From Balanoglossus misakiensis (Eukaryota > Animalia > Hemichordata): a stretch of 64,000 nt of DNA. The position numbers and the translations under genes were made by a program. Under the pieces are notes generated by a model. That model did no database searches. It saw only the letters and a program-made list of their open reading frames with translations, and was not told the DNA's origin. The DNA is taken from the NCBI GenBank assembly GCA_040954595.2, contig CM082581.2, forward strand, positions 10,415,099-10,479,098. The letters run 5' to 3'. Positions 7,578 to 50,699 of the stretch are shown here, piece by piece (the stretch's first letter is position 1; every line of letters starts with the position of its first letter).

Positions 7578-9102
7578 TGATTATATATTGGATGATCATA
7601 ATTTTACCAACTGAAATATCATTTTATGTCTGGATCAATAAAGATAATGAAGTTGGCAATGACATTTGGTGATCGAATCCTTACCATCTGAAATATTTTG
7701 TGTCTAGATCAGTGAAAAAGTTTGTTCTGTTGATTGGTTGCTTAGGAATCATGACAATAGAAATTTAGCAGCTAAAATCCAACAAATCTGCATGGCAGGA
7801 TATCAGAGGGTAAAATAAGCATCTAAGAGTGAATAAAATGGTCTGAATAAACATCAGTCAATTGTCAGTTTTTTTTTTACTATGTTGCCATGGTAAGACT
7901 GTCTCAATCACCATCTGACAGTCGGTTACCTGTAGGTTTCACAAGAGGTCAAAGTTCGTTTGTCCTCTACCTTTGCCCGCTATCAGAAGAATAGTGACTC
8001 TCTAAACAAACTTTCAAGTAGCTTCACTATGAAAGGAATACTATATATTGATGTTGAATCAGACATTCTAACAGTTCCAGACTTGCTTCATCTTTGGACA
8101 ATAGTAATGTATGGTTTTGCAATTATGAATACCAGAGTTTTCTGTCACGGATGGTTTTTCTGTATGGACACTGTCACTCTTTAGGGACTGTGGTATAGAT
8201 GACAGTTTTGCACTATAGCTGCATTAATTTTCGTTTACTGCTGACTTTATTTAGACGAATTTAAGTAAATCTGTGTTTAATGCCTGCGGGTGTCTCAAAG
8301 TTGGAATGACTTGTCTTTCAAGTATTTTTTTGATTTCTTAAAGAATATATTGACTTGTAAAGATGCTAGTAAAATATATGAACAAACTTTATCTTTGAGT
8401 GGTGTCAATTTCATTGACATGTTTATTGTCTAATTTCTGATATGCAAATATTAAAAAAAATCAGAAATATACATTTCAACTAGATACATGCATTTCTAAA
8501 AATCTATCCCATTAGTTTTGAACCATGGGAATACATGTACATTTAGAAAAGTTCTTATCATGGTTTTGATCTTGTAAAAATATTGTATTGAAAGTAGATC
8601 TTCATCTCACGAGTTTAAATGTTACATCTGCTAATGGTAGAAATTCAATTGTTTTCAAATCTAATACACTATATATGTCAACGGTATTTACAAATGTGGT
8701 TTTACAAAAAATGTAGATCCAAAACACACAGACTACCGTACTGCCTAATTAAATATTTTAAAGCATTCTGAATCATGTATATTCACAGATTGTGCGTATA
8801 CCGGTTGGTGTAATAGAAATACTTCAGAATCATAATGTAAAACCTTCCTGAATTACTGGTAGTTATATTTCCGCAAGTTGAATAAGTTTCTGTTTTGGGA
8901 TAGATTACAGATAGTATTCAAAAATCCTTTTACACAAGTATACAGTATGACAATAAGAAAATGAGACGATAATACTTCTTTGTCTCTCAGCATTCTGTGG
9001 CGATTAATGTCAGCATGAAATGCAGTTTTTAAATTGTCTTTAGAACCAAGATGAACTGGTACCTGCAGTGTATTCAGTTTTGATGATTCCCATTCGCCAC
9101 GG

Positions 9103-11523: not shown

Positions 11524-13932
11524 CTTTTGAGATTTCTGTAAGGAAAGATAGAAAATCAGTATAGGGAATATCAGGACAAACCTTAGAAATCTTCAAAGAA
11601 AATCATAGTTGGGGGCATTACTGTTTTTGTATTTCTGAATAACAAAATCGCATAATTGAAACATTTATTCAGCCGTCAACATTACAGTCACGGTCACCTC
11701 AGCAAATCATGCCAGATACCAGCTGCAATAGTTCAAATACTAGTAGGAGCTTGGCGTTGGCGTGCGGCTTTCGTGATGACTCGAGGTTTCGACGAGTTTT
11801 GGATGTTGGAGACCGAGTTGGACCGCAAGCAAAACGTTACAAAGCTTTTTTAATACAGCATGATTCGCCTGCGTTTGCAAGTTGTTGGCTTGTGCCTTTA
11901 TATACAGCACGGGCTCTACATTGCTGCAGTTTTGCAGCCCCTCCGTCTCCCCTAGGGACGAGGGCTCTACACTACAGCTTCGTGCATATAGTCTCCTTGA
12001 ACATCGAGGGAAAGTTCTCATACTCACGACAATCGCTGTCTCCCCGAAAGTGGAGCTCTCTTCTTTAAAAAAATCCACACGAAACAAAGAAAATGGCGAG
12101 CGTGTGTCAGTTGCAGATCACAAGGTACATTTCGGAAACTTTATTTCGTTAGCTGCGCAGCCTTCACGATCACATATTTATCTAGTATATCAATGAATTT
12201 TGTATACATAAACCGAGAGAAAACAGGGTATTCCCATCCTACTTTTTGAGTTAGGGGAGTCTAAAATATTGTGGAAATTTCTGAGTCAGCACTTTTCTTG
12301 CAGGTTCCTATGGTGAAAAGATCTGAACAGTTCTATAAAAAATTCAACCAGGTGACATTAGTGTTTTCTTTATATCAATTATCATTTAATAACTCCTCTT
12401 TTGGCACCTTTTCTGAAAATTTCAAGAATAACAATATTATAACAGTACACTGTTTTCTCAAAATTCTACCTGCAAGGCTATGGAATGTGATAACCATTGC
12501 ACTGCATCTGGTAGTCATACGTGACTGGCTTTCGATATGATAGTGAGATTTGCAATTCGTTACTTGGCGGTTGAACATGTTAAAAGCTCCATCTTGAACA
12601 TGTTGAAGACAATCTCATGATGAAACTTACCTTAAATATCATGCGATCAGGGCCTGACTCACACACAAAATACGCTCATGTATGGCAACAAAAAATCAGC
12701 GACTGGCATTTAAGAAATCGCCACAGCCCACCTTTTGAGTTCCACGTATTATGCAAAGTGAGCATGCGCAATTGAAGTTAATATGTTACAATTAAATTGC
12801 ATTGTGAATCGACTGCACTATGTCACATATACACTGCAAATTGACATTATTATTCCATCGTTGAGATATACTTACGGACTTTGGGGTTCTCATCACTTTT
12901 TCCGCGGCCCAAACTACTCCACAACCTCATAAACTGGAGGCCTCTAAAACTGTGGACACATAAAAGGCTGAGACGCCTGGGGTGTTTTTTTGTTTCACTT
13001 CAGTTCGCATTATTTCAATCAGTCAATCCATATTTAAAATCAAACATTAACTTAAGCAGGCCAGTATGAAATACTGCGATATAGCCTAGATGAAAGTTTT
13101 GGACTGTAGTTGTATTGTGTTAATTTTGGATTACTGTTAATTCAGAAGAATTTCAGTAAATCTGGCCTGTGAGTGTCTCAAAGTAGGAACAACATGTCTT
13201 TCAAGGACTTTATGACATCAAATAATTTTTTATTTCTAAAGGAATATATTGACTTGTAAAGATGTTAATAAAATATACGAACAAACTTTATCTGTGAGTG
13301 GTGTCAATTTCATTGACATGTTTATTGTCTAATTTCTGATATGCAAATATTACAAAAAATCAGAAATATACATTTCAACTGGATAAATGCATTTCTAAAA
13401 ATCTATCCCACTAGTTTTGAACCATGGGAATACATGTACATTTAGAACAGTTCTTTTTATGGTTTTGATCTTGTAAAATTATTGTATTGAAAGTAGATCT
13501 TCATCTCACAAGTTTAAATGTTACATCTGCTAATGGTAGAATTGTTTTCAAATCTAATACACTATATATGTCTACGGTATTTACAAATGTGGTTTTACAA
13601 AAAATGTAGATCCAAAACACACAGAATACCATACTGCCTAATTAAATATTTTAAAGCATTCTGAATCATTTATATTCACAGATTGTGCGTATAGGTGTAA
13701 TAGAAATTCTTCAGAATCATAATGTAAAACCTTCCTGAATTACTGGTAGTTACATTTCCGCAAGTTGAATAAGTTTCTGTTTTGGAATAGATTACAGATA
13801 GTATTCAAAAATCCATTTACACAAGTATACAGTATGACAATAAGAAAATGAGACGATAAAACTTCTTTGTCTCTCAGGATTCTGTGGCAATATATTTCAG
13901 CATGAAAAGCAGTTTTTAAATTGTCTTTACAA

Positions 13933-16548
13933 CTAAGATGAACCCGAACGTTGAATGATTCTTCTTCTGAATTCATTTTTGATAAGATCTGTGCTTTCAG
14001 AGTCGATGTTGACCAGGCGTATTTCCTGCAATGATCTCCGTTCTCCCGGAATGTTCAGAAATTCTGCCACAGCATTGAATATCATCTCGGCACACACAGG
14101 CTTGGGCACACCATAGATTCCAGAACTGACTGCCGGTATTGCTATCGATTTCACTCCCAAAACTTCATCAGCGCACCTTAGACAATTCAGGAATGTCTGT
14201 TGAAGGCAGGCCATACATCTCCCCTTGTCGCGATAATCACTCCATCTTGGTCCAACTGCGTGTATTACATGGCGACATGGTAACATATAACCGCGTGTTG
14301 GTACGACATTGCCGGTCTCTATGGATCCAAAACTTAGTACGAGATCATCACATTTTCTGTCTAACTCTCTTCCTGCTTTGCGTGCAATGGCCAGAGCAAG
14401 TCCACCGATGTGTTGAAGATTTTCATTGGCTGCATTGACTATTGCACCAGTATCTTCTGCTGTCAAATCACCCTTATACACTTTTATTTCTATTCCCATT
14501 GAGGTGATGATCCGAAGTTTACCATGGGTCTCTTCTACAAATCCAGAAATTGTATCAGTGTCTGAACTGGTGCCTGCAGGGTATGATTCCAATTCGCCAC
14601 GGTCACTTGTACCAGGAAAATTTGGGGAAGACCATGTCTTATGTTTTCCATGGCGTCTTCCAATACCTTTGCCCCCTGATGCAGCATGCACTGTATCAGT
14701 TCCCCCCTCCTCCTCATCATCATCACCGTCAGAATCAGATTTCGATGCATCCATACCCAGGAAACGTTTCACTGTGTTCTCTGCGGCTTCAACTTCTTTT
14801 GAACTCTGTGCATAGAATATGATCTGATTTCCTCTCATTGTGGTGAATACACTTGGATGTTTCACCTGAGCTTCACCACCAGCTGCTGCCAGTAGTTTAT
14901 CAGATGTACTTGTCAAGGACCTGTGTTTGATACTGTGATGGTGTTTCCTGTACAAGTCAATCAGTTTGTCTTGTGCTGTTTGCATATCTTTCCTTTGATG
15001 TGAATTCCCAGTGAATTCCATGTGTATCTTACAATCTGCCCCTACAGCTGCTGATTTGTTAATCTTCACATTGTACTCTTTCTCGATCTTTTTTATTTCC
15101 TTACCATGCACATGCCTGATATATGCAAACACATCTGAATTTACAGAGAACTCATTTGATTTCATGTCAACATCCTTGGTGTCAAACTTTGACTCATATT
15201 CAGTTGTTGGGCCTCCACTTTCGATTGGTGATTTACTTCTATAACTACCAAAACGTGCGGGTTTACTTGTGGTGCGTCCATAGGCCGTAGATTTTGTATC
15301 GGATGAACTTCTGTGTTTGGGAGTCATCTCTGCTTCCTCAGCAGTTGTTGGGCGTCCACTTTCGATTGGTGATTTACTTCTATAACTACCAACACGTGTG
15401 GGCTTATGTGTTTTACTTGTGCTGCGTCCATAGGTCGTAGATTTTGTATCGGATGAACTTCTGTGTTTGTGGGTCATCTCTGCTTCCTCAGCTTTTTGAC
15501 TGAGGTAGTGCTCTACCATGAACTCTTCAAGATATTCTTGGGCTTTCTTGAATGCTAGGTAATTGTCACTGCTGATACCAATTCCGGAACCTTCAGATGA
15601 ACAGCTCACACCTGTTTTTTCTAATGATTTAATCAGATCTATTTTACCACCAGAAATCCCTTCTAAGCATTTCAAGAATTGGCTTGGTATTGTTCCTTGT
15701 AGATCTACCAGAGGCTGAAGAAGAATTAAGATCGGTTCAAGATGATAAAAACTTAGGCAAAAATTTTAAATATCAGAGATTATCAAGACCATGCACATTT
15801 GGTAATATACTTTGCATATGAATATCAGAATATTTAGTTTTCATAAAAAGAGTCAGCACATACCTCTGGTGGTTTTCGGTACACAGTAACTTCACTGCCA
15901 TTGACTTTAAAAGTTTTCAACCGACGCATTTTATCAGCAGCTGCCATTAAAAGAAAAAAAAATTAAGAATGAAAACAAAATAATCAAGATCAACTCCTTG
16001 ACAGGATTATTTATATATCCAAAATTATGTTTAGATTCTGTTATGGAGGGTAACTATAAGAATCATGCTATTTCTTGCTGTTCAGAATTTGATGATGACA
16101 TGTTCAATGATATGTCAGTTTTCACAAAAAATTGCGACTGTTGTTTTATTCAAATGTCAATTAATATCTGAGGAAGTTACTAGGGGTGCATAGTCTTGTC
16201 TTCTTCTCAGAGATATTAAATAGCAATTTGGTATTTTTTGAGAATCATACTTTGTTAAACACAGTTACTGCTGTCATAATCTTATCACATGACAAGGCCA
16301 TGTCAGCCAATCAGAGACCTGGATTGCCCTGGATTATAACTCATCCCACTATACAGGTACTCAATATACTCACCCTCTTTGTTTGAAAATGTTGCTATGG
16401 CAACATCTGTTCTTCTGGAAGATATTGGAAATGTAACATCAACAAGTTTTTCACTCATGGAAGATTGCAAGGCATCTGCGATGTCATTTTTGTGTGCACC
16501 GGATTTTAAACCTGTCACAACAATGCTGCTTTCGTCTGAGTAACTCAT
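13933..16548 (-). CDS. Copy B: RRM-like + KH-like + single macrodomain protein (PARP9/PARP14 macro1-like, putative ADP-ribosyl hydrolase), 677 aa, no ART or RING domain
   Basis: Exons 16548-16374, 15940-15864, 15714-13933, GT-AG and in phase (2034 nt). N-terminus SSIVVTGL..AIATFSNKEAADKM..FKVNGSEVTV is RRM-like; FAYIRHVHGKEIKKIEKEYNVKI is KH-like as in DTX3L/PARP14. Macro motifs: KGDLT, AIVNAANENLQHIGGLALAI, VIHAVGP, SIAIPAVSSGIYG, EIRLVNID. Confidence 0.88.
15201..15492. repeat. Two diverged coding tandem repeats (141 and 150 bp) in copy B
   Basis: AEEAEMTHKHRSSSDTKSTTYGRSTSKTHKPTRVGSYRSKSPIESGRPTT followed by AEEAEMTPKHRSSSDTKSTAYGRTTSKPARFGSYRSKSPIESGGPTT. Confidence 0.9.
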
Positions 16549-16899
16549 CTTTTTGAGATTTCTGTAAGTGAGAACTGACCGATGTTTACTTAATCCACTA
16601 AATCCGTGGATGGGGCACAAAGATTAAGTCGTTAGCAGGTGCTTAATGGGAAATGCGATAGCTTGTATTCTGGATTAGCAACTGATAAGACAGGTGGAGG
16701 TAACACAGAAAAATAAACAAGCACAAAGACTGTTCATCAAGTAATGTTTATTGGGGGGGGGGGGGATGCAGGAACTCCGCCATTTATAACTTTCATGTTT
16801 GCAGCCCCCTGTGGTTGGAGACCGAGTTGGACCGCAAGCAAAACGTTACAAAGCTTTTTTAATACAGCATGATTCGCCTGCGTTTGCAAGTTGTTGGCT

Positions 16900-17385
16900 T
16901 GTGCCTTTATATACAGCACGGGCTCTACATTGCTGCAGTTTTGCAGCCCCTCCGTCTCCCCTAGGGACGAGGGCTCTACACTACAGCTTCGTGCATAGTC
17001 TCCTTGAACATCGAGGGAAAGTTCTCATACTCACGACAATCGCTGTCTCCCCGAAAGTGGAGCTCTCTTCTTAAAAAGATTCCACACGAAACTAAAGAAA
17101 ATGGCGAGCGTGTGTCCGTTGCAGATCACAAGGTACATTTCGGAAACTTTATTTCGTTAGCTGCGCAGCCTTCACGATCACATATATATTTTGGGGGAAT
17201 CCCCGGTCCAATTATGCAATTTCATTGGATCCCTCGCAAGCTTGTTGATGACGTCATTTCACGTTGACCAATAGCAGGAGACCAGACACTGGGGATTTCC
17301 CAGAACCAGGAAGTAGCTTCAACTCAGAAGGTGTGTGACTTGTGCCGTATATTCCGACGTACGTAGCTTCGCTACCGAGGCCATT
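16900..17385. promoter_or_regulatory. Bidirectional promoter between the macrodomain gene (-) and the PARP14-like gene (+), with NF-kB/STAT/CRE/CCAAT/ETS motifs
   Basis: TATATAAA on - at 16906-16913; GGGAAAGTTC 17015-17024; TTTCGGAAA 17138-17146; GGGGAATCCCC 17194-17204; TGACGTCA 17249-17256; CCAAT 17268-17272; GGGGATTTCCC 17291-17301 overlapping TTCCCAGAA 17297-17305; CAGGAAGT 17307-17314. CpG-rich. Confidence 0.7.
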
Positions 17386-20300
17386 ATGGCCCTGGCGAAG
17401 AATTCGGTGTTAGTTTACGGTATACCGAAAGAAGTAGGCATAGAAACGGCCAAATCGAAGTTAACGATTTACTTCCAAAAGAAGCAGATATCGGGAGGAG
17501 ATGACGTCGCTTTCGTTGAGGCAGTGGAAGAGATTGATCTGACAAGAAGTGTGGACAAAATAGACGAATCTCGTGCTTTCATCGTCGTATTTAAAGCTTG
17601 CAAAGGTAATTATGATATCCGGAACAACATTCAAACACTTTACATACAATAATTTCAAATGGCTGGTCAAAGTAAGGACCACTAATTTTTACTATCAATT
17701 CAGACTAGTAGAAACGCATTGATAAATGTTGTCGCGGATCTGTTGTGTTGGGGTGGGCCCACTGTGCAACTAAAGGAAAACAACCCATCTGGGGAGTAGG
17801 AGGGATCCGTAGCATGCATACTACACAATGCAGGAATCAAACTGACTGCGAATCAGGCTTCAGTCAGTTTGATTCCTGCGCCCCACGTGACACAATGTAC
17901 CATATTTTTGTCATCAAAATTATGTATGTGAGAAGCATCCCTTGATGCAGCCTCCTTGACAACACGCAGCACATATCAAGCAACACTGCAAGTATAACAC
18001 AACAACCCCCAAACACAACAGCATCTATAAACATACAATTTACAAACAAGACAAGTTAAACAAAATGATAATCAACATTTTAAAAAAGCCATGATTGTTT
18101 TTATAGGAGCAGCGGCTACTGCCCTTTGTGCAGAACCAAAAGAACACAAAATCAAATTCAGATTTGAAGAGGGGAAGAGGAAAGTCCAACTTAATATACA
18201 GTCATGTCCGTCGGAATTGGAGGCAGCCATTTTCAAAAAGAAGAGTAATGACCCCAACATTCACAACCATGCAAATGAGGTAAGATATATCTAGCATATT
18301 TCAAAACAGGACTTTGACCAAATGTACGTCCACCCCCTAACACAACCTGAACAAACATAGACGTATAGCTTCTGGCTTAATTACAATGGCGCAGGGATTT
18401 TGCTGTTCTCATTCTGCTGCTCTTTTCGCAACAAAACGGCGACACCATGTAGACCCAACCAAAAATGGAAGCTATGTCTACATATTAATGCTCTCAAAAC
18501 AAAAGGTGGTCAAATTTAGACAACGCCTAATACATGGAACCCAAAGTACATTTTTACTGGTAATGGTTAAACGTCAATGCAAGATCTTTAAACTGATAAC
18601 ATATGTAGGGCATTCGAATTATTAACGATAAGAAAAGTACCATTATAATGCAGTAACTATTCTTGTTGAATGTGAGGTAAAAAGAAAGAAATTGTGCTTG
18701 GGTGAATAAACTATTTTATGCTACGTGAGTTGAGATTAAAGGGTTAGTAGGTCATCTTTTTGTCAACAGTGTGCATATCTTGCATTTAATGCCACATACC
18801 ACAATCAAATTCTTCTGGGTATTTGGATTTGAGTCAAATTCAAAGAAATGTATTTCAGCGAAACATGGGCCAGGAATCCCATATCACATAGTCCATGACA
18901 CTACCATGACTCATGAAGGTCACAGAATTCGTAGAATCTGAAATGAAAGTGATGTACAATACCTACCAGTGCAGTGCTTTCTGTTTATTTTGGTTGCTGC
19001 CTGCAATCTACTGTATTTCAATAATAATCTTAGTCTAGCAGTATGTTCATAATCAATGCATTTCTTTTTTGTGTTTTTTTTTATGGTGCATTTACCATTT
19101 TGCCTAATTCTGGCTTCTTTCATTTCATTTTGTTGAAAGATAGTCCCTCAGTGCTACGCTGTACTAGTGGATCAAAACAAACCAGTTTTAAAAAAACGAC
19201 ATCAAAATTTGATTTTTATGAGTACATGTATAATCACTAATAGTCATTCATATGTTTCGACTATAATGCATCTTCAGTTTCTTTTTTATTTTCGGTTAAA
19301 TTTGGGTGGGTGTGTGCATTTTCCTTTGTACACTTCTAGGAACCACGAAAATGAAAGTAAAAACAGTTATTATAAAAAATTGTTTTGCAAAGTTAGAAAA
19401 AAAATGTAGACAGTGTAGAAGATATTAAAGTTTTCCTGTTTTCTAAATAAACTGTATCAAAAATAATGGAGAGTTTATTTCTCACATTTGAATAGTCTTA
19501 ATCAAGTTCTCAGTACAGGGAGTATCTGGTAAATATTATTTGTAGAATTTTTTAAAAGTTAATGTGGACTATTTTGATAGAAAATAGATAATTATAAGAA
19601 GCTATGTTGCATGTTAAACGGTGGAGATCATGCCAGAATGTTGATAATTTGGTCTAATTACGGTCTATCGTGAATTGTTAAATTTCAGGAGAAACATGAT
19701 GCAACTGGTGAAGTGACAGGAACAGCAAAACAGAATTTATTGTTGGGAAATAAGCAAGTCATGTCGCAAAACTTTGCAGATCAACCAACCAATCATCCCG
19801 TTGCTGCATTTAGTCATGAACCAGCGAAGCCCCCCATTGGTTTATCTGCCGGCTTGACAATGACTCAGCCAAAGAACCAGCCAATGGGCCCTGCACCACC
19901 TGGTTTTACAACAGGTGACATAGGAAGTTATTCATTGTTTCCTGAAACCCAAACCCAAAGTGTGGATCAACTGGGTCTTCGACATCTGTGGGAGTCTAAC
20001 ATGCCCCAGGACCAGAGTTTGTATAATAAAACATCAGCTTTGACCAATCAAGAAAAGCAACATCCACAAGGAGATCTTGCTCCCCAAATGGACAGGGCAC
20101 CTGGGTCTAGAATGGCAATGCGTTTTCCCGGTGGTGCCGTGAGGCAACCACAGTGTGGAACAGAGGTGGAAAGTTATTCTGAGCAAAAACCAGTCGACTT
20201 GATCCAGTCCACTCAACAGGCCATGGGCTACGGTCATTTCAGTGCTGCTGGGCAGTCGCAATATGAAACCAAGCATGGGGTTTTGAAGACTGTACAGCAA

Positions 20301-23300
20301 CAGGAACGTGTGACTGGGCCAGATAAGCGACTACAACTAGTTCAAGATGGAGGTCATCTGGAAACGCGTTCACAGTTTGATGGAAAACAGCTTCCCACAC
20401 CACCGCAACTTCAAGGACAAGGTCATCGTGTGCCACACCCACACACTGTCCAGAAGCCAATTCCACTACAAGTTCAAAGAGAAGGTCCTCCAATGATACA
20501 TCCACAAGGTGCTTACAAACAGCATCCATTTCCACAACTGAACCAAGAACAAGTTCAACTGATGGCACCACAAGAACCTCGGCAGTTTCCAGTCGTTCAA
20601 CAGCAACAGAACCTAGACATGCAGACCCTGACAGGAATGCAGCCACCATTACTGGATGCTGCAGCGGGGGTCAATCCTGTAATGCTGCAGTTCATGAAGA
20701 GTCTATCTGTTGAACAGCAGCAACTGTTTCTACAAGCTTCTGTTGCTGCTAAGGTACCATCATCAGGAACTGACAGCCCATCCCTGGATTCTATCAACCA
20801 AGCCCACGTCCAGATGCTTGGGGGTGTGCGACAGCCTGAGTTACCGATCCCAAGGGGTGTTGCTGGTCCATATGGTAAAACTCAACAAGCCTATCAACGG
20901 CAGCCGAACCAGCAGTTTGTCATGGGAACACAACAGCCTGAAACACTGAGACATACTCCACAAACCACACAAGGTAAAAATTTGTTTGTGATTCTATACT
21001 CAAACGAGAGAGCAATATGCTACTGTGGTTTCCAAGCCATTTAATCATTTCCCAAATTTCAGCAAAACGTTTCTTCCATTCACAGAGCTGACTGAAGACA
21101 CGGCAGATGAAGAAGATAGCTGCACTGTTGAAGTAACTGGGTTTGGAACTATCAGGCCAGATATGTTGAAAGTGTACTTTGAAACTGAACATCGATCCGG
21201 AGGGGGAAGTGTCTCCAACTGTGAAATGAAGAGTGAAGATGTCATGGTCATCACATTTGAAAGTCCGGATGGTGAGCATTGCGGGAAAACATTTGTATTG
21301 TATATAAATTATATTAACTAACAGAGTCAAATTATTTCACTGATATTTGGTGACTTTTTCATTATATCTGTCTTGATATTTAAATAAGACCATTTTTATT
21401 AACAGATATTATTGCAAAACTGCACAAAAAGTAATTGGTTGAAAGATGCTTGCTTCATAAACTATACACTGAAGGAAGTGTTTTGGTCTTGTACGACTTT
21501 AACATAGAATGGACTTTATTTTATTCCATCAGTGGCTAATCGTGTTGTTCAGAAGGAACACATCATGGGCACCAAGACATTGGTGCTGAAGAAAGTCGCC
21601 GTTCCAAGGACATTTGAGGAAAGTGCAGGAATTATATCCAGCAGTGATGAAGGTAGGTATAGTCGGGTTCATAGTAACCACCTCCATTTTATGAAGCAAG
21701 TTACAACTTGTGCATGGAGAAGGAGACTATCCATTATGTTACATGTTGTATTCAGAAAGATAGTTAGTACATAATCTGTTTTTCCCATGGTCTAAATTGC
21801 ATCTCAGAAATGGCAAGTGAAGAAGATGAACCATTGAATGATGCGGTTGAAGTGACAGGAATGGATTGGGGCAAAAATAGTCTTGAAGTCCTCCAACTTT
21901 ACTTTGAAAGCAAACGAGCTCGTGGAGGTCCTGTCAAAAGTACCCAAGTATTGGCTGATGGCAAGAAGCTTCTCATTACATTTGAAGATCCTGAAGGTAT
22001 TTTTTTTATATTGATTCGGAAAGTAAAGCAGTTAAAGTTAGAATTGACTGCTATATCTTGTTATAATCATTGAAAAGGGATCTGATATTTTGTTATGTGA
22101 TGATGTAAATTGTACCAGATGTGACAGCTGGTTAATTAACGACAGTCTTTTGACATTATTTGACCTTGAAAGTTTATTGGTTTGTATTTACCTGGTCACA
22201 ACATGGCTGCTTCCTTGTTATATTCACCTACATTAGAAATGGGAGCAACAGTGCCCTTGGTGCTATTTTTCTGTCTCCTCTGACTTTTGAAACTCGCGAA
22301 TGTAAATCTGATGTGTGATAGAAAAAAGAGTAATAAAGTTTAATTGAATTCTCACAGTTGTGCCCAGGGTTCTGGAACATTCCCACAAATGCCAAGGTGT
22401 GGTGCTGACAGTCTCATTACCCGTACAGAAGAAGAGACGTCCCATGCTCCCCAGAGACAAGAAAGCAGTCCTACTGAAAGGGGTGTCCGACACCACAAAC
22501 AGAGAGACAATCGAATTGTTCATGGAGAACTGTACTGGTATAGAAGAAAAGCCTGCCTTGTTTTCTGGTGACCAATCCGGTGTTGTACTACTCAGATATT
22601 CCCAAAGTATCCCAAGTAAGTACTACACAGTTCGAAGTATTGTTCGAAGATTAGCTGCAGGAATATGCCACAAAATGAATCCCAGTGGTGGAGGCTAAAT
22701 GCCATTAAGAAAACCACCCCTTTAATAAAAGTTAGGTTTTAAAGCAATTAACTTTACTCTTACTTACAGATTTTGACAGAGTTATCCAAAAGGTTGCCAA
22801 GAAAAAATTAAACAAAGTGAATATATCAGCAGAGGCAGTGTACATGACTGACTCCATTCTGGTCCAGAAAATACCACGTAATGTGTTGGAAGATACAATA
22901 TGTTTGTATTTTGAAAGTAGACGAAGTGGTGGAGGTGATGTGGAAGATATCGTATTTGATAAAGAGAAGAAGTTGGCCGTGGTTTGTTTCAAGGATTACA
23001 AAGGTACAGTGTCACTTTGTGTCATCTCAGTATTGTGTCCTATTGAAGGTATTTTAGATCTCTAACAAGTCTGTCTGTTTTGTTCAAACAAAATGACATT
23101 ATTGTTCTGTTTGAATTGTCATCTCTTTAATAGTCATCAACACAGTTCTGCAGAAAAGTCATATCTTGAACAATGTCCAGCTGGATGTGCAGCCATACCA
23201 TGAATGCCTTGGACACGAATGCATCGAGGACAGTGACAGAGAAACATCTCAGTTGCCTAGCAACAGACAGCCACCTGACCAATCAAAAGAGGCACATAAG

Positions 23301-26300
23301 AGGAGACTGCAGGATCCACCTGGTGGTGGCGCCGATCGTGCTCCTAAGAAGGAGGGAAGGTTGGAAAAAGGGCAGAAAGTGAGGAAACGATCAGACCTGC
23401 CAACAGACAGAAGTGCAATGATCCTGAAAGGCCTGGCAGATGGAACTTCAAAAGAGAATATCGACCTTTACTTGGAAAATCGTTCACACATTCCAGAAAC
23501 TCCGAACTTACTGTTTGGTGAGGAACCTGGCACTGTGATGGTCAGATACTCAGAAGATATACCAGGTAATAAGCAGACATGTACAAATGACAGAATGATC
23601 AAGTTCCTCCTTTACGTTGAGCTGTAAAGCAGACAATTCACCAAGCTTGAATCTTTGCTGTTTACTTTTAACAGTTCACTGAAAACCTCATTGTTTCTCT
23701 GTTTCTTTGCTTTTCTGTTCAAGATTTTGATGGAGTTGTACGCCGTATTAGTCAAAAATCATTGAATGGGGCCAGACTTACTGCCGAGCCAGCCTACCAG
23801 ACTAACTGTATTCTGGTTGAGGGTTTGCCACCCGATTGTTCCGAAGACGTGTTGACTTTGTATTTTGAAAGCAGCAGACGAAGTGGTGGTGGGAGTGTGG
23901 ACTTTGTTGACTTTGATGAGGAAAGAAACGCAGCTCAAGTATTCTTTCAAGATTACAAAGGTGAGAGACTCACAACAACAAAAGTCTCCTCCTTGAAATA
24001 CATGTCTGCAATGTGTTTGTTCTCTGCCATTTGACTGTATGTCTTTCAGTAGAGATGTCATGACTGTGTGAGATCATATCAAATACACAGTTACAGTACT
24101 CAAGGTTACTCAACCATTTAGTCAAAGATACAATCATAAAATGAACCTTTATTGCATCATAGGATAACAACTTGTCAGTGTCTTCAAGAATGAACAAGTG
24201 AAACATGAATATTATTGATAAACAAAACCTTATTAGGCATAAATATAATGGAACATAAATATATAAACCTCTGTGTACACGAAATTGGCCCTCTTACTCA
24301 CAAAGTCACTCACAATGTATTTTTTTCTCTGCAGTTGTTGAAAATGTGCTACAGAAGAGACATGTGATCAATAAGGTTCCGCTTACTGTGCTGCCATTCC
24401 ATGCTAACTTGGGTTATGTCATCAGTGGTGAAGAACTAACTCCCAGAATTCCAAAACCTGTCACTGTTGATGTGGATCCTGTGATTGTGGGATTTATCAT
24501 GACAAAGGTGCGCCAATTTGGTGAAGAATTCCAACAAATTTTGGGAAAAGCGCACGCTCAGATTGAGTGGCCATATCAAGGAAGGCACGACGTAGTGGTA
24601 TTGATACCTGCTCTCACCCCAGACACAAAAAATCTTCACAGAATTGTGAAAAGTTGGCAAAAGGACGCAGTCGACACCTTGCAGCAGTATCTGCACAGAT
24701 ACAAAATGGTCACCATTCCGGTGCTTGAGGGGATCTGGTTGAAGGTCAAAAGTCAAGTTGGATCACTAGCTACAAGTGGTGATCCCGTAGACTTTCAGAT
24801 GGAGCAGTCGTCATCCATGATTTTCATCACCGGTAAAGTGGCCGACGTCACCAAACTCGAAGCGAGGGTCAAGGAGATTATCGAGGTCATCGAAGATGAA
24901 ATGCAGAAAGCCAAGCAGAGGACCACTGAAAGTGTGAATATCCAGGAAGATTTCAAGATCAAACAACTCCTAATGTGCAGATTTTCCAAAGAAATCATGG
25001 AGAAATTTTCAGGACTTCAAGTGAAAATTGTATCTAAAGCTCGCAAAGTCACCTTTGAAGGTCTGCCGAATGATATAGTGATGGCCAAAGTAAAAATGTA
25101 TGAGACTCTCAACACATTACCCGTGAAGAAGTTCACTCCACCTTCACAGAATATTAGAGAATTCTTACAAGACCCAAGTGTCACTCAGAAGATCTATGAT
25201 ATCTTTAAAACCAGGGGTTTTAGAGCTGCCTATATGGTTCAGGAAGAAGTCATTTGCTCTGCTTCCACTGAAGAGACAGCAAAACAAGCCATTCAGATTC
25301 TGAAGAACAGTGTCGCCGAGTACTCTATTGATCTGAAACCACAATCCCTGGCTGCTATTCAAAAAGACGAATGGCAGCGGTTGGTGAAAGAGCTAGAAGA
25401 CGAAGAAACAGTCTACATACTGCACCCGCAGGCAAGTTCTAGAAACGCTGTCACCGTCATTGGCTTCAAAACGAATCTGTCGCCCGTGGCGACCAAACTT
25501 GAAAGTTTCATCAAGCAGCACACTGTGATTGATGAAGTCATCAAGATGGAACCCGGTCGACTGAGGTTCATCTTTAATTCAAAAGGAGAAGACTTACAAG
25601 AAATACAACAGCAAGCCAAGCAGCAGCCTGTCACCATCAACAAACACAAAAACGGTGTCGGCATAGTTGTGAGCGGAACTGAGGACGACGTGAGAATGGC
25701 CTGTCAACAGGTGAGGAAACTCGCTGAGAAAGTCGACAGCCGACCGCACCCAATCGATAAACCCGGAATCCCCGCACTCTTTAAAGAAGACAAGGGGAAA
25801 ACATACCTGAAACTGGTAGAGGGTGAATTCAATTGCTGCATCGACGTAACTGACCCATCCGAAGTTGAAGAAGCCATGGAGGCCGAGGATGAACCTGAAA
25901 GCGTTCCACAGATGCCACCACCACCTACTCTGACGGTGTTGTGTTATCACACAATGCAGGATGGCAGGAGAATTGTGGTGGGCAAGGGAGATCTTACCCA
26001 GATGCCTGTCCAGGCTATTGTCAATGGTTGTACTCCACAACTAGATCATTCAGGAGGACTAGCAAAGGCCATTGTAGATGCAGGTAGGTTGCTAACCCAG
26101 CCGAACAAAACTCTGACATTTTGAAGTGATTTCCAAATTTCATGTTATTATTTCAAAGGCAAATATCATCAACCTATGTGTCAAATAGTCTTTCAAAATG
26201 GAATTCTTGATTGAACCACTGTGTGTATTGTCCAATTTAACCTTTTATGAATGATTGCAAGGTGGCAGATTAATTTACTGTTTTTCATTTGTTAATGTCA

Positions 26301-28958
26301 GGTGGCCAGACAATTGCTGATGAAACAGCTAGCATTCTAAGGAGCAAAGGTGGGAGATTATTTCCAGGCCAAGTGGTTTCCACTGGGTCTGGAAATCTTC
26401 CGTGCGTGAGAATCATCCATGCAGTTGGACCGTCATGGAACCGTTCGAGAAGAGGGGGATTAGAAGAGGGGATGTCACGAGAAGAAAAGTTGCTTTATGA
26501 CACTGTGTGGAATAGTTTGTGGGAAGCTGAGGTGCACCAGTGTCGTTCTGTAGCCCTGCCTGCCATCAGTTCAGGGGCTTTCGGTTTCCCCTTAGATCTT
26601 TGCGTGGGCACCATCATTGCAACTGTAGATGAATACTGCAGTACACAACCACTAAGATTTCTGAACGAGATTAATCTAGTGGATAATGCTGATATGACCT
26701 GCAAAGCTTTCCAAGGCAAACTGGTTGAGTACTTTGGCTCTGAAAATGTCACCATACCTGATCAGTTTCCAGGTAGGTGTATTTTACATTTCACAGCGCA
26801 AAACACTAACTTGGTTACTTGGCTTTGATGGGACACATCATGACCTTACATGCTAACATACAGTCTGTCAATATTCATATTTCCTTGGTGTAATTTCTGA
26901 GGAAAAGATACGTTTTCATATTTCTAAACATGATTTGCTTGTTGGACTTTGATTGTCCAAACATTTTGAAATCTCTAGGTATGAACTGTCATTTGTAGAA
27001 CTTTGTAAGTAGCGTTCAAAGAAGCTGACCAATCGCATTATTTTTTTCCAATTATCGTAAATAAACGACTAGGAGGATATGCTGGAAGTATGAGTTCCCA
27101 GAGAGGAAGATTTAGAGGTCCGGCCACTAATGATGACCTACCGGGTACTTCGCTGCAGCCACAGTCAAACACATCAGAAGTGAAGACTGCTGAAGGAATT
27201 GTGATCAAGTTGGTCAAAGGAAGCATAGCCAAACAAACGGTAATTTATTACTTCACCAAGTGGCACAATGAGATATTTTATTAATCAGTTTTTCATTAAG
27301 GTAAATTCTGATGCCATGGATAAATTTTCTTTTTCTCCGACATCGACAGACTGACATCATAGTTAACACCACGCAGACTACCCTGGCTCTGAACACAGGG
27401 GGCGTTTCCGCGGCAATTCTAAAAGTAGCAGGGCCACAACTTCAGCGAGATATCGTAGCACAGAAGGATGCTGGTGCGGATGTCCGAGCTGGTAGCATTA
27501 TTGTAACAGGTGGAGCCAAATTGAAATGTGAAGCTGTTTATCATGTTCTGTGCTGTCATTGGAATGGACAACCGAATGCTGAGAAAGTAAGGACAGTTTA
27601 TTAAAATGACTTACATATGCAACATCAATCTGTTTTGCATTGTGATCCAGTGTGGTCACCAGACAGCCATTTTGTCAGAGTCTTTTATGTCCATATGAGC
27701 CATTTGCACAGGCATGACAAATGAGCTATTTAAACAGACATACCTCAACCAATTGTGTTTAAACTTTGGACAAGGATGATTTACTTTGGCGTAGTCTTCT
27801 AACTTGGCATAATCCTGCAATTTCTTCCACTTATGTCATGGACAATGATCTTTTTTTTCAGCTGTTGAGAGGTCTACTGAGGCAGTGTTTTCAAGGAGCA
27901 GACCAAAGTGGGATGACTTCCATCGCATTCCCTGCTATTGGCACTGGTGGACTTGGATTTCCAGCCAACATCACTGCAAAAGTGATGTACGAGGAGGCGA
28001 AAAAATTCAGCACAAGTAACCCTGCGACATCACTGAAGGATATCAGATTTGTGATTTATGATCAAGACCATCAAACGTATCAGGTGAGCATGAGTTTGTG
28101 TGCGACATTTTGTTCCAGAGAAGCCTAGCTGTCACTGCTGTACATTGTATGTCTAGCAATAGCTGTCTGTACATACATTGTTTGCATGGCATTCTTACCA
28201 ACATCAAGGCACTGACGATCAGCTCATATCTGATGAGGTGACATCATTCATGCTCCAACTTCTTAACTGACCAGAGAGAAACCACAGCTTGTATGTTAAC
28301 TCAATATTTCTGTTGAATGCCAACATCTGTCCTAATCTGTGTGATCCCTTTTTTCTGAAAAGGCATTCAAAAGTGAACTACAACAACTGACTGGAGGAAC
28401 TGCTAAGAGAAGACACAGTACCAAAGGAGATCAGAAAAAGAACTCTGCAGGCATGAATCCAGCAATGCATGGATCACATGCCAGCCACTCTCCATTGACA
28501 CAAACACCAGGTTTTCAAGACCGTTCTTCTCATTCAATTAGAGGATCTGGTGAGTTCAATAGTATCTCCATGTGAAATGCAATTATTTGTGAATGATGCA
28601 AGAAACATATACTGTGAACTTACAAAGGACAAGTCAAGAAATGATCATATACATACATGCCCCCCAATGCCCCCCCTCAATGCCTTCCAATCCCCCTCCA
28701 ATGCCCCCAATGCCTTCCAATGCCCTCCAATCCCCCTCCAATGCCCCCAATGCCTTCCAATGCCCTCCAATCCCCCTCCAATGCCCTCCAATCCCCCTCC
28801 AATGCCCCCCAATGCCTTCCAATGCCCTCCAATCCCCCTCCAATGCCCTCCAATCCCCCTCCAATGCCCCTCTGGTCTCGAAACCCTAATAAACTACTTG
28901 CTGATTTTATGGTAACTGAAAAACATTCTCAAGTGCACTTTCTTCATTAGATTGTCTA

Positions 28959-28992
<34 letters not shown>

Positions 28993-31900
28993 TTATTTGT
29001 ATAGCGTCAGTATCCACAAAAAAATGTGATCAATGACGCTTAAAGCAAAAGTACAATACAACAAATGGCTAAAAAACAGATTTAAAAAGTAAAGTTTTAA
29101 CATTTGATTTAAAAACAGATAAGTCTGGTGCCTGGCGAATGGTGAGTGGAAGATTATTCCAAAGAATTGGAGCAGCAACAGTAAAAGCGCGATCACCATA
29201 ACTCTTGGTGCGTGATCGAACAGGGCAGAGTTTGAACTGATCAGCTGACCTTAAATTGCGACATGGAACATATAGATTAGTCATGCTAGAAAGATAGATT
29301 GGACCAAGTTTATGAATGGATTTAAAAATGAGAACTAACATCTTAAAAACAATACGCTCTGTAACAGGTAGCCAGTGCAACTGATACAAAATTGGAGTGA
29401 TGTGACAGGTGATTTTAGAACGAGTTACAATTCTAGCAGCAATATTCTGAACGCGTTGGATACGGTTGATTGAATACTTCGGGAGCCCAAATAAAAGTGA
29501 ATTACATGAATCAATTTGAGACGTAATGAATGCATGAACTAATTGCTCTGTAGCTGAATGAGATAAATATTTGCGGATAAGCGCAATGCGACGTAAATGA
29601 AAAGTGGCAGAGCGGCAGATCTGTCCAATATGTGGCTTCATTGTCAGACAAGAGTCAAGGATCACTCCAAGGCTCTTAGCCTGACAATGGACGGGAATCA
29701 GAGAATCGCCAACACGAATTTCTGAAATCCCTCTAGCAGAAAGTTGTGTTTGTAATTTCAGGGGGAGAAGATTCCATGTACACTGGTCTGAAACAATCTG
29801 CCAGGGGTTCACAGATGATGATTGGAAATATTTGTGTGCAAGTACAGCAAGGGGACATCACCAAGGAAACCACTGATGCCATTGTCAACAGTACCAACGT
29901 AGACCTCGATCTCAGTATGGGTAAGGGTTTGCTTTTTTGTGAACTTATTGATGGATAATTTTTGAATTTTAAGTCACACTGAATAAAATTTCAAAAGTAA
30001 CGAGTCCTATAATATTAGTGATTGCAAGTAGTCTGACTGATTTCCACATAACTTTTTCAAGCTTCAGAAATTTATTTTCGGTGTGACGCTATCCCCTTTG
30101 ACCTCATGGTGTTAATTTTTACAGGAGGTGTTTCCAAAGCCATTGTTGCTGCTGGAGGAAGAACTATTGTGAGGGAATGCCAGAAATTGCGTAAGCATAT
30201 TTGATTTATAGTGAGATCATGCAGTCAAATCTGTGTCTAGGGGGCCTCGTCGTCTGTATAATGGACACTTGTCTATGGTGGCCACTTTGTTACAGTCCCT
30301 GCACAATCTACAAGTTCCCCTAACTGTCTATTAAGAACAGTCCTTGACTTGCTTCTGGGTGACAGCACTGTACATGTATGTCTTTTAAAAATTGTTAAAC
30401 CACATATTAAACAGTGATTCATTGAAATATATTCATGTGCCGTCCAATGATGAAAAATCATTTTCTTTTTTCGACAAATGTAATTTTTTCAAGGAATGAA
30501 ACATACCACCAAAGTGATCTCATTAAGAATTGAATTTGAAATAAACTCTTCTGCCATTTCCAGAGAAACAGCAAGCTGACACTGTGGTGATGACTGGTGC
30601 TGGTAACCTCAAATGTAAAAATATCATTCATATGATAACACCATATCAGAAGTTGGAAGACAGCATTGTGAAGATGCTTGCATTTGCGGAGCAGCAGAGA
30701 ATGAAATCCTTAACTATGCCAGCAGTCGGAACTGGTAAGGAATAATTTTAATCATTGCAACCACAGATATGCTGTAATTGATAGTTGTAATCAAAGCATT
30801 GTGACGGGCTACGATGAAACTGATGCACAGATTGATCTGATGGAGTCGCATATCATTACAGCACAAATTCTGTATACCCAATGACATGCAAGGGTTAAGG
30901 GTGTATGAAATAGTACTGTGTTATCCAATAATACCAAAGTTACATGTACTTTTGGTTGTGTTAATAAGATGAACAATTCATAATTTAGGATTATCAGAGT
31001 TGTGGAGCACACTCACTCCACACATGCCGTGGTAGAGTGAAACACTGCATTGTATCGACACGAATCTACAGTATAATGTCCCATTTTTTTTATTCCAGGG
31101 GCACTAGGAATAAGTCCTGCAAAAGTGGCTCACCTAACACTGGAAGCCATTGGAGACTTTTTTCAAGAACACAAACCGCAACATCTCAAACTGATCCGAG
31201 TGACAGTCTTTCAGCCACCAATGGTTCAATCGTTTCATCAGGCGATGGCCAATCTCCACGGAAAACCACCAAAGGATAAACGTAACGTGCTGCGAAAAGC
31301 TTGGGGTATAATTCCATAATATTTGTCATTTCACTCTATATCCTCTTCATCGAGTGTTAACTTTGATACTTTACCACATTCAAATTAATCACATCTCTAT
31401 TAAGGACATATCTTTCAAGACAAAAGTTACAGTTTTAATAGAAAATTACATGTCTCTTAAGGACACCTCTCTGTTAATGACAGATTTTCTGGTCCCAGAG
31501 GTGTTTTTAGTGACACGTTTCACTGTATATACTTTTCAATGTTTAACAAACAGATGCCACTTTTGGGAAAGTTCATCTTTTTGGAGCGAGCTCTGGTGAA
31601 GCCGAGAAAACATGGCATACACTGATATTGTACATCTTTGCTGGGAGAAAGGCAGACATTGATGGAGCCATCGAGAAGCTGGAGAAATTAATCGACTCAG
31701 AATTCGGAGACCACGTAAGCTGGATTTGTAATGCATTATGCGCATGTATAATTTCTGTGGGAACAGTGGGTTCCAAGTTTGCCATTAACACAAGTTTATA
31801 ATGCTATGGTAAAATTGGCTGTTATTCACATACAATATTGTACTTGCCGGGAATAGCTAAACTAATGTATGTTTTCCTGTTATCAACAGGTTATTTCCAA

Positions 31901-34136
31901 GGATGCCATTGGCAAAATGAAACCTGAAGATCTAAGTCACATCAAAGTATTTGCAGAACCCTTTCAGGTCAGCCATAGATGAATATTTCAGTAAAATAAG
32001 TCGAAACAAAATATGTCCTTATTTTCTTAAGTTCAATCTTAGCATTGTGCATTTCCCCCCATATGAATCAATGTGCATTCAATTGCCATTTCTTTTAGAG
32101 TGCAAGGATGCAGTTCAGAAATAGTTAAAACTCAATTTTAAATGTAGCAAGAGCTCACAAGTGCATGGTTATACAAGCTGATGTAACGGCAACTGATTTA
32201 GTTTTACCCTTCAAAGAAAAATTGTGGAGTTACAATGCTATTCCTTGATTAAACAGGTTACCTGCAGGGTGCCCTGCAAAAGACCCTTGATTTTGAATTT
32301 CTGTTGATCAACAGGTGAAAGTCGAAAAGATTGACACAGGTCGTGTAGTCCGCCTCCGATTGCAAGGAAGAATCCGTGATGTTGTCAAGGTGCAAGAAGA
32401 AATCAATGATATTCTGGATCGCATTTCTGAGGAGGAAAGACAAAGAAAGGAAGTCTTGATGTTGGCCAAAAATGTCAAATGGATGTTTCTGAGTGATGTT
32501 GAAAAGTTCGATGAGTACGACGACGACATCATTGGTCTGATTGAACAGGCAAAAATGGGCGGGAAAAGGGATGTCGAGTTTGAGATTGGGGATGGAAAAT
32601 ACAGGATCAATTTCCAAAAAATGGAAGAGACAGACTTGGATGATATGTCAACAGTTCCAGTGAGGAGAGAGCTTAGAGAAGGTATGTTTTTATCTCCTGT
32701 AAAATACCGATGGTGTACCATGTAGGTGTGTCGCCAGCTGGTTCTGATGCTAAGAGCCCAATTTTAGACCATTTACCCCCCCCCCCCCCCCAACACACAC
32801 GCACACACAAATCAAATGTATATTTGATCAAAGAGGCATCTCTGTCTACTTCAATAACTTGATAACCACTGAAGGCACGATGTCTATATACTGCTCCATG
32901 GGGCAAAGATTTGTAAAACCGTGGAATACACAACTGCGACATCAATTACATGTATGTTGGACATGCATATCATCCTTTACACATGTTGTGATTTATAACT
33001 TGTTTTCTCAGGTATATTAATCAGAAATGTATTTTTAACTTTTAGGAGGGGTCCCTCTTCCACCAAATTGGAAAAACATGACTCCTAATAAAAATTTTGA
33101 ATCAGAAACTTTGGATCCCAGATCATTGGAATACCAAGGAGTGGAGACATCATTCAAGCAGACACTTCAACCAGGGTATAATTTAACTCAAATTGTCCGG
33201 GTAAGTTAAAAGGGATGGTAGCTTTTAACTTTTGTTTCTTTTTGAATGATTTTGTTCATTGTATCAACTGCAGTATCTTTTTCTACTTCCTATGTTATGC
33301 TATTGAAAACGACCACTGTTCTTCTTAAGTGAGTTTTATATGAATTGTGTTTTTAGATTGAACGTCTGCAGAACCAACATTTGTATCGCCAGTTCTTCAT
33401 AATGAGGCAGACCTTAGAAGCGAAAAATCGCAGGGGTACCAAGAATGAAAGAACATTATATCATGGAACAAGTGCTGACTCCATTGGTAAAATAAATACG
33501 ATGGGTTTTAACAGAAGTTTTTCGGGTAAAAATGGTAAGTGGTTATTATAAGATAGCATCAAATATGTCAATCACTACAAGATAGAAGCAATTTGCATAT
33601 GATAGAACACTACTTGTCAAAAATTTGCGTTTCATCCAATCCCACCTTCCCCACTATACCATTACCTTTTCGACAATTTATGTTCATAGTATCTTTTTTT
33701 ATTAAACACAGAGATGTCAATGGTTGCAGAGATTATAAATGTGTTTTTCCGCACCAGTCGATAATCAAAGGAGACAGTGACAAAAAAAGCTCAGTCTTCA
33801 TATAAACGTCTTAATTATTGATGAATGCATCAATGTTTGTCCTTTACAGCAATTCTGTATGGAGCTGGCACATACTTCGCCGTCAATTCTGAATTATCAG
33901 CACGAAGCGTATATTCTCCCCCTGATGCCAATGGTTATAAGTACATCTACCAAGCCAAGGTATTGACAGGAGAATACACAGCAGGTTCACAGAACATGCT
34001 GGTACCTCCATCTAAGAATCCTAATGATCCCACAGATTGCTACGATAGTGTTGTTGATAATACAGCAAATCCAGAAATCTTTGTCGTGTTCAATGATGCC
34101 GTGGCCTATCCAGAGTATCTGATAGTATTTAGCTAG
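17386..34136 (+). CDS. PARP14: PARP14-like mono-ADP-ribosyltransferase (~7 RRM-like, Q/P-rich region, KH-like array, 3 macrodomains, KH-like, WWE, ART), ~2731 aa
   Basis: 26 GT-AG exons: 17386-17605, 18107-18279, 19689-20973, 21086-21271, 21533-21652, 21808-21996, 22358-22615, 22770-23003, 23134-23565, 23724-23960, 24335-26083, 26302-26772, 27073-27239, 27350-27586, 27862-28083, 28363-28549, 29762-29920, 30125-30190, 30564-30734, 31099-31305, 31554-31714, 31890-31967, 32315-32681, 33046-33200, 33357-33534, 33850-34136 (sum 8196 nt, divisible by 3). Repeated LYFESxRxGGG RRM motifs; three macrodomains; WWE (KYRINFQKMEETD); ART domain ERTLYHGT, GFNRSF, YGAGTYFA, PEIFVVF, AYPEYLI. The H-Y-I triad indicates a mono-ART. 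The symbol marks the family; one-to-one orthology is unproven. Confidence 0.93.
28657..28870. repeat. C-rich minisatellite (CCAATGCCCY / CCAATCCCCCT units) in PARP14 intron 16
   Basis: About 20 tandem 10-11-bp variants visible directly; they explain the spurious Pro-rich ORFs here. Confidence 0.95.
28963..29740 (-). mobile_element. 5'-truncated non-LTR retrotransposon (L2/CR1-group LINE): 3' end of ORF2 plus (TTA)n tail
   Basis: Open frame to the stop at 29069 with AKSLGVILDSCLTM, LVHAFITSQIDSCNSLLFGLP, HITPILYQLHWLPV, YGDRAFTVAAPILWNNLP (typical post-RT region of L2/CR1 ORF2). Short 3'UTR and (TTA)~10 tail at 28963-28992. Candidate TSD AAGTT at 28958-28962 and 29741-29745. Confidence 0.9.

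Positions 34137-36281: not shown

Positions 36282-50699
<14,418 letters not shown>

Follow-up and report, generated by a model that had tools for sequence, protein, structure and literature searches.

A ligase-less DTX3L-type macrodomain gene lies head-to-head with a PARP14-like gene in the hemichordate Balanoglossus misakiensis

A 64,000-nucleotide stretch of the Balanoglossus misakiensis genome (contig CM082581.2, positions 10,415,099 to 10,479,098 of the forward strand; hereafter the window) carries a head-to-head gene pair: a PARP14-like gene on the plus strand (17386-34136) and, on the minus strand (16548-13933), a gene for a protein with a hydrolase-type macrodomain, which we refer to as the partner. 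The macrodomain tree, the KH profile, the predicted folds and the absent RING-DTC end lead us to call the partner, with high confidence, a ligase-less descendant of the macrodomain-bearing DTX3L proteins of invertebrates, and the first macrodomain (macro1) of the PARP has lost an asparagine associated with hydrolase activity. We give about even chances to a split pair, in which the partner docks on the PARP by its second KH domain (KH2), likely restrains this writer of ADP-ribose and erases ADP-ribose in trans. The features of the two genes are as follows.

16374-16548, minus strand: first coding exon of the partner, encoding the N-terminal portion of a degenerate RRM (gene model, RRM profile).
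15864-15940, minus strand: partner exon 2, end of the RRM (GT-AG, in frame).
13933-15714, minus strand: partner exon 3, with KH1, a repeat linker, KH2-KH3, a linker, the macrodomain and the stop (gene model, Pfam, AlphaFold).
14749-15159, minus strand: partner KH2-KH3, a DTX3L-type tandem KH and predicted PARP-docking module (Pfam, AlphaFold, fold matches, docking of orthologues).
13969-14496, minus strand: partner hydrolase-type macrodomain (Pfam Macro, structure matches, tree).
16549-17385, no strand: 837-bp interval between the ATGs, a putative shared promoter plus 5' untranslated regions (ATG positions, motif scan).
17386-34136, plus strand: PARP14-like gene, with RRMs, a Gln/Pro-rich region, a KH array, three macrodomains, a KH, WWE and an ADP-ribosyltransferase (ART) domain (gene model, Pfam, splices in run X3).
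25963-26772, plus strand: PARP macro1, split over two exons (motifs; alignment of the orthologue to human NASN/GVFG).
27073-31305, plus strand: exons with PARP macro2 and macro3, of reader type (gene model, Pfam).
32315-34136, plus strand: end of PARP KH8, WWE and the ART domain with its H-Y-I triad positions (Pfam, alignment).

The two ATGs, at 16548 (-) and 17386 (+), are 837 bp apart, in agreement with the divergent layout at about 840 bp that a first-pass annotation of this sequence had described, and a divergent pair spaced by less than about 1 kb has the layout of the DTX3L-PARP9 type. The partner gene comprises three coding exons with GT-AG introns and a single stop, encoding 677 amino acids, while the PARP14-like gene has 26 exons whose frame is open throughout (2731 amino acids). 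Four of the 25 PARP introns are spliced out at the predicted GT..AG sites in low-depth contigs of run X3, which were compared over window positions 8000-27999; runs X1-X3 are one sample from one study, possibly the source of the window itself, and do not count as independent support. Run X3 is labelled 'DNA?' yet contains spliced joints; it has no cover over the partner coding exons and one 169-base piece 3' of the partner stop, and is uninformative on expression. For both genes, the best relatives are found in the hemichordates Ptychodera flava, Saccoglossus and Glandiceps.

The RRM-like and KH-like scaffold that had been proposed for the partner was borne out by three approaches, which give the order RRM-KH-KH-KH-macrodomain. 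Against a five-sequence RRM profile, residues 1-90 reach 33.4 bits, where the best of 200 shuffles reaches 6.7, identifying the N-terminus as a degenerate RRM; the Pfam model KH_DTX3L matches at 29.1 bits (cut-off 27.4), though it picks up a PARP14 fragment as well, at a score under that cut-off; and AlphaFold predicts three alpha/beta (KH-like) domains, rather than five, plus the macrodomain. The KH2-KH3 model (predicted local distance difference test, pLDDT, 95.6) has tandem-KH fold matches by Foldseek, with no DTX3L or PARP14 chain among the matches listed. A phmmer search of KH2-3 against the PDB gave nothing significant, an Atlas search returned KH leads alone, all under 0.8, and a search with the P0002 scaffold found P0002 itself as the sole match. 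The macrodomain (Pfam Macro, 103 bits) has PARP14 macro1 and PARP9 macro1 as its best structural matches and bears the MacroD/Mac1-type signature: NAxN (NAAN at 14425-14436, minus strand), the loop-1 Gly, a G-hydrophobic-aromatic-G motif (GIYG at 14110-14121, minus strand) and a macro1-type fold. By analogy with other macrodomains, it is probably an active hydrolase. A tandem repeat of 141-150-bp units occupies the KH1-KH2 linker (15201-15492) and is also present in a duplicate copy of the gene (9702-9984; see below).

With its RRM and DTX3L-type KH domains the partner has the N-terminal half expected of DTX3L, but it lacks the C-terminal RING-DTC of DTX3L and other Deltex proteins, its stop falling 11 residues past the end of the macrodomain. 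RING-DTC queries from four proteins found no DTC in the 64-kb window, the best match (E-value 0.026) being the RING of a neighbouring plus-strand RING gene, and the partner contains no ART domain. The absence of RING/DTC and ART exons had been anticipated. RING-DTC is likewise missing from all five hemichordate partner-type proteins, three of which end directly after the macrodomain; an in-frame stop directly past the macrodomain is present in the window partner, P0001 and P0169. Because the stop follows the macrodomain and the window holds no DTC, the partner is not a Deltex ligase, though a DTX3L descendant; on its sequence, it cannot act as an E3 ligase.

To place the partner, a profile search gathered 150 proteins; 204 non-redundant macro1-type domains entered a FastTree analysis and 73 of these, picked with the FastTree result in view, an IQ-TREE analysis. 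Among all proteins collected, sixteen combine a macrodomain with a DTC, and 15 of these have the hydrolase-type motif; one DTC-bearing protein, P0260, was left out of IQ-TREE, its macro1 being of PARP14 type and grouping with PARP14 in FastTree. The partner and four hemichordate relatives form one clade (support 100/96), nested in a 27-row clade (96/98) that takes in every one of the 13 DTC-bearing rows but none from PARP14, whereas the window PARP macro1 joins the PARP14 proteins of P. flava and Glandiceps (100/98). The macrodomain phylogeny suggested at first pass placed the partner with DTC-bearing proteins, not with PARP14. Consistent with this, amphioxus RING-DTC proteins rank first and fourth among the 37 non-self matches of a KH2-3 profile, and none of the 62 PARP14-type proteins, which serve as a control in a set collected by a partner-based profile, is among them. 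Two further proteins, P0020 and P0165, unnamed or unplaced, join a B-box (plus RING, filamin) to the same DTX3L-type macrodomain and are either TRIM-like fusions or merged gene models.

These results bear on two simpler origins of the partner, as a young local duplicate of the KH-macro1 segment of the PARP or as a truncated model of a RING-DTC gene. Adjacency and 37% identity to PARP macro1 would fit the former; for the latter, such database models are sometimes truncated, and DTC is absent from two of five amphioxus cluster members. A young local copy of PARP macro1 is contradicted by the tree, the KH profile and an approximately unbiased (AU) test that rejected a joint clade of the two hemichordate sets (p=0.022; the hypothesis was taken from the first-pass annotation and tested with the tree already known). 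Splicing on to a RING-DTC is contradicted by the in-frame stop in the window, P0001 and P0169, by the lack of a DTC in 64 kb and by the convergent RING gene bounding the locus. Both origins are largely refuted, and we consider them very improbable. The proposal that eraser activity had moved to the partner is therefore not supported, as its macrodomain belongs to an old macrodomain-DTX3L lineage: to judge from the sequences, the partner kept its eraser and the PARP lost one. Nor is the partner an analogue with a different architecture, as had been suggested; it is a DTX3L homologue.

The facing gene matches the Pfam models RRM_PARP14, KH_PARP14, Macro, WWE and PARP, and has the PARP14-like architecture of RRMs, KH array, three tandem macrodomains, WWE and C-terminal ART. 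Its ART triad positions read H-Y-I, the residues (H-Y plus a hydrophobic third) expected of a mono-ART, and the ART of the P. flava orthologue, with the same motifs as the window model, aligns to that of human PARP14. After splicing, macro1 reads GDLTQMPVQAIVNGCTPQLDHSGGLA...ISSGAFGFP, with NGCT at 26023-26034 (+), where Thr stands at the catalytic Asn position, and GAFG at 26574-26585 (+); macro2 ends in GTGGLG and macro3 in GTGALG. These motifs, and the NAAN of the partner, are as first annotated. Three side observations concern this gene. A 428-amino-acid Gln/Pro-rich exon (19689-20973, plus strand) without a Pfam match lies between RRM1 and the later RRMs, and the Glandiceps PARP relative has a similar low-complexity region. 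A 262-amino-acid frame inside a PARP intron (29069-29857, minus strand), also without a Pfam match, resembles what we take to be the end of a reverse transcriptase of the long interspersed element (LINE) type. A pyrimidine-rich tandem repeat (about 28650-28880) adjoins this frame.

Human PARP14 macro1 is a hydrolase (PMC10499325). Published criteria for macro1 activity ask for an Asn or Ser before loop 1, a Gly and, in loop 2, an aromatic residue together with a hydrophobic one, for which Ala is permitted (PMC10221186). The window macro1 keeps the Asp, the Gly-Gly (SGGL) and the loop-2 Ala-Phe (GAFG), and departs from these criteria at the Asn/Ser position alone. The P. flava orthologue (67% identical overall) reads NGST/GAFG, its NGST aligning with the NASN of human PARP14 macro1, while a Glandiceps PARP14 relative (NSAN/GAFG) keeps the Asn. 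Among 56 PARP14-type proteins with a recognised macro1 (isoforms counted separately; the filter set aside 6 of 62, wrongly so for P0187, whose motif is intact), 50 keep Asn or Ser, one of the other six being truncated, and 47 have both Asn/Ser and an intact loop 2; NGxT combined with such a loop 2 is confined to the protein of the window and to two isoforms from P. flava. Loss of the Asn is, within this sample, unusual, not unique. Identity to the P. flava orthologue is 71% for macro1, 71% for macro2 and 69% for macro3, as expected for a retained reader, and on this measure macro1 is maintained, as reader or residual enzyme. A viral macrodomain with Ala or Asp in place of the corresponding Asn lost hydrolysis and retained binding (PMC12632316). 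By comparison with such macrodomains, the PARP macro1 likely binds ADP-ribose and no longer hydrolyses it.

A different reading of the same residues is that macro1 is still a hydrolase, with Thr replacing Asn/Ser, so that there is no split and the partner acts as a second, PARP9-like trans eraser and inhibitor. In keeping with this, the Asp, Gly-Gly and Ala-Phe are all retained, Ser is accepted at the Asn position and a loop-2 Ala is compatible with activity (PMC10221186, PMC10802294), an Ile-to-Ala change in loop 2 having left viral enzymes active (PMC10802294). High conservation, equal to that of macro2 and macro3, fits activity too, and the viral mutants cited above are Ala and Asp, not Thr; macro1 may still be active. 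Set against this are the retention of Asn/Ser in 50 of the 56 macro1 rows, the change of two NAxN residues in both ptychoderid-type proteins and the inactivity of the viral Asn mutants, and we regard an active macro1 without a split as distinctly unlikely.

A split pair would be expected to make contact. As the C-terminus of the window PARP is spread over exons, the P. flava orthologues were folded together (PARP 972-1330 with partner 142-282), giving a docking score of 0.65, compared with 0.00 for the best of three controls; runs share at least 83% of contacts, with partner pLDDT of at least 83. The mark used for docking is reached by 51/78 solved and 2/108 mismatched microbial pairs and, among eukaryotes, by 39/65 solved pairs without a like complex and 2/126 unrelated pairs. 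Docking through KH domains, as had been proposed, was thus predicted, but the partners of the contact differ: the contacts predicted with confidence lie between partner KH2 and the ART domain (PARP residues 1229-1317), and none reach KH8, so KH-KH as the main contact was rejected on this P. flava model. Of the human proteins, DTX3L KH2-3 binds PARP14 KH8-WWE-ART (PMC11251020, PMC13224862), and contact of KH2 with the ART is modelled, supported by mutations and associated with inhibited auto-modification (PMC11251020). The P. flava KH2-ART geometry matches the human DTX3L-PARP14 model (PMC11251020), and the docking pass may reflect likeness to the human family; no solved complex of the KH2-ART kind was found by phmmer against the PDB or among the Foldseek matches listed. 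The ART side of the interface is 17/18 identical between the window PARP and P. flava. Transfer of the dock to B. misakiensis is uncertain, and we lean slightly towards KH2 docking on the ART in this species as well.

The interval between the ATGs was scanned with promoter consensus patterns. It contains two further features.

17194-17305, no strand: motif cluster, with kB-like sites (17194-17204 and 17291-17301), a cAMP response element (CRE; 17249-17256), a gamma-activated site (GAS)-like motif (17297-17305) and CCAAT boxes (motif scan).
About 16575-16815, no strand: high-copy repeat, probably in a 5' untranslated intron of the partner (bin depths, loose ends).

Of three distinct kB-like sites in the window, two fall in the interval, a number reached in 5 of 2000 shuffles of it. 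No GAAANNGAAA element is present in the 837 bp, and a promoter of the interferon-stimulated response element (ISRE) type was rejected for that reason; kB-, CRE- and GAS-like sites take the place of the interferon-type promoter first imagined. A shared promoter of NF-kB type is likely on these motifs, which also tip the balance a little towards co-induction of the pair. Repeat bin depths are 5600-37700, against about 50-150 elsewhere, with loose ends at 16575 and 16813-16815. A splice-acceptor-like site directly 5' of the partner ATG suggests a non-coding exon upstream, and because of this site and the repeat, the transcription starts are probably closer together than the ATGs.

We next consider conservation of the pair. 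Outside the window, synteny was judged by accession numbers and record lengths, a weak proxy that is blind to orientation and adjacency. By this measure, the accessions of the P. flava PARP (XP_070541077/78) and partner (XP_070541085/86) nearly adjoin, and their records are equal in length. In an amphioxus hybrid assembly, PARP14 (69/70) is near a complete macrodomain-DTX3L (74/75), both motifs being intact, and in a second amphioxus assembly the two are 31 accessions apart. The amphioxus record of length 30,621,613 (P0244, P0248) additionally bears a second macrodomain-DTX3L and a PARP14-like protein whose macro1 is degenerate (TPAS), and may represent a parallel case.

Several observations weigh against a split pair. 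In a third amphioxus assembly the two genes are on different scaffolds, and in Glandiceps the records carrying the sampled partner-type genes differ in length from those with PARP14. As amphioxus has the hydrolase motif intact in both a DTX3L-type and a PARP14-type protein, the partner macrodomain does not depend on loss in the PARP. P. flava has a second partner-type and a second PARP14-like gene, which might supply or take the activity. The docking model comes from P. flava proteins, not from those of the window, and the partner side of the interface is 8/21 identical, no better than the rest of KH2-3 (50/120). The kB-like sites lie closer to the PARP ATG, and the window-wide count of such sites is at chance (8 against 5.65). 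Finally, mammalian PARP14 has given up macro1 activity on three or more occasions (PMC10221186), so that such a loss does not by itself point to a new, dedicated partner.

Much of this would also follow from a pair of unrelated, ordinary changes in an immune gene cluster that evolves fast, namely loss of the ligase in the partner and drift or readership of macro1 in the PARP; the genes may then be co-induced, with erasing done by MacroD-type enzymes or paralogues and not by the partner. The recurrent mammalian losses, the extra P. flava paralogues and the lack of extra conservation at the partner interface all agree with such a history, as do further degenerate PARP14 macro1 domains among the 56 sampled rows and the occurrence of E3-less partner forms in Saccoglossus and Glandiceps while the sampled Glandiceps PARP keeps its Asn. 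It accounts less well for a docking pass that reproduces the human KH2-ART geometry, or for the recurrence of both the Asn loss and near-adjacent accessions in P. flava, and we consider it unlikely, if still a serious candidate.

If the pair is instead functionally split, co-induced transcription from the likely shared NF-kB-type promoter would yield both proteins. The PARP would be an active mono-ART carrying three reader macrodomains; the partner would clamp the ART through KH2, damping the writer, and its own macrodomain would strip ADP-ribose in trans, a task divided in humans between DTX3L and PARP9 macro1, here without ubiquitin ligation. RING-DTC would have been lost first, in early enteropneusts, and the PARP Asn later, in the lineage shared with Ptychodera, where its loss would be tolerated because a tethered eraser was already present.

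The closest known proteins are the invertebrate macrodomain-DTX3L proteins (amphioxus XP_078668574, feather star XP_033098882), which share with the partner the RRM/KH scaffold, KH_DTX3L, macrodomain clade and domain order; the partner differs in having no RING/DTC and ending just past the macrodomain. In the human DTX3L-PARP9-PARP14 module (PMC11251020, PMC13224862), too, a DTX3L-type gene is head-to-head with a macro-PARP, KH2 is predicted on the PARP14 ART, and a trans-acting hydrolase macrodomain trims PARP14 marks. There, however, PARP9 macro1 acts as the trans hydrolase, DTX3L has ligase activity but no macrodomain and faces PARP9, and PARP14 macro1 is active, whereas the hemichordate pair has dock and macrodomain in one chain, no ligase and a position facing the PARP14-like gene itself, whose macro1 is without the Asn. 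The PARP14 of ruminants, vesper bats and some carnivores has likewise lost a catalytic macro1 residue and is otherwise complete (PMC10221186); those losses were assayed, while that in the window is read from sequence, with a hydrolase-type gene directly opposite. In Aplysia, DTX3L and PARP14 orthologues belong to different immune modules (PMC8195618).

Both ingredients of the pair are known, as macrodomain-bearing invertebrate DTX3L has already been noted (bioRxiv 10.64898/2026.04.23.720386) and PARP14 macro1 loss is recurrent. The novelty lies in a hemichordate form devoid of the ligase end and placed head-to-head with PARP14, in an Asn loss shared with P. flava, and in a dock predicted to be conserved. 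In the literature covered, which excludes most subscription papers, we did not find the E3-less form, the PARP14 pairing, the shared Asn loss or the KH2-ART dock in hemichordates, nor anything on DTX3L with macrodomain and amphioxus or on hemichordates with PARP14. The main text of the 2026 preprint, whose figures and supplements may show such loci, contains none of the terms hemichord-, Saccoglossus, Branchiostoma and lancelet. That preprint dates the DTX3L-PARP9 locus after the lungfish split; a hemichordate DTX3L-type gene head-to-head with a macro-PARP means either an older linkage or a repeated origin. More speculatively, and doubtfully on present evidence, a head-to-head, co-induced pair of a writer and a docking, eraser-bearing DTX3L-type protein could be ancestral to deuterostomes, which acorn worms reduced to a ligase-free switch, the PARP giving up its own eraser; the pair would then be far older than the tetrapod DTX3L-PARP9 locus. 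A natural DTX3L that has its own hydrolase and no RING-DTC, facing an Asn-less PARP14, would uncouple docking, inhibition and erasure from the ligase function. It bears on the way in which DTX3L, PARP9 and PARP14 govern ADP-ribosylation and on the extent to which ubiquitin is required. Such a pair would be a natural two-protein model, amenable to in vitro assay, of a DTX3L KH clamp and hydrolase controlling PARP14 without ubiquitin.

The neighbourhood of the pair includes a second copy of the partner.

8196-12181, minus strand: tandem partner duplicate without the whole macrodomain and the kB cluster (88-90% identical blocks).

The deletion in this copy equals about 13944-14562 of the partner, at a 5-bp microhomology, and is directly preceded by a frameshift. 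The duplicate also has two additional incomplete copies of the beginning of exon 3, ends just short of the kB cluster and has a ratio of nonsynonymous to synonymous substitution rates (dN/dS) of 0.73. It is probably a pseudogene; use of the third acceptor (10191) would allow no more than an RRM-KH decoy. Its upstream non-coding block (11805-12181) is 97.9% identical to 16814-17189, compared with 88-90% for the coding parts, an excess that could stem from conversion or from a constrained 5' exon. The last exon of a RING-H2 gene (5712-7577, plus strand), presumably RNF103-like, converges on the partner copies. On the other side, a multi-exon DOCK-family gene (about 36280-47000, minus strand) with DHR-2 and DOCK-C2 matches converges on the PARP. 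Long low-complexity exons without a Pfam match are located at 210-1817 (-), 51689-53167 (+) and 53438-54607 (+).

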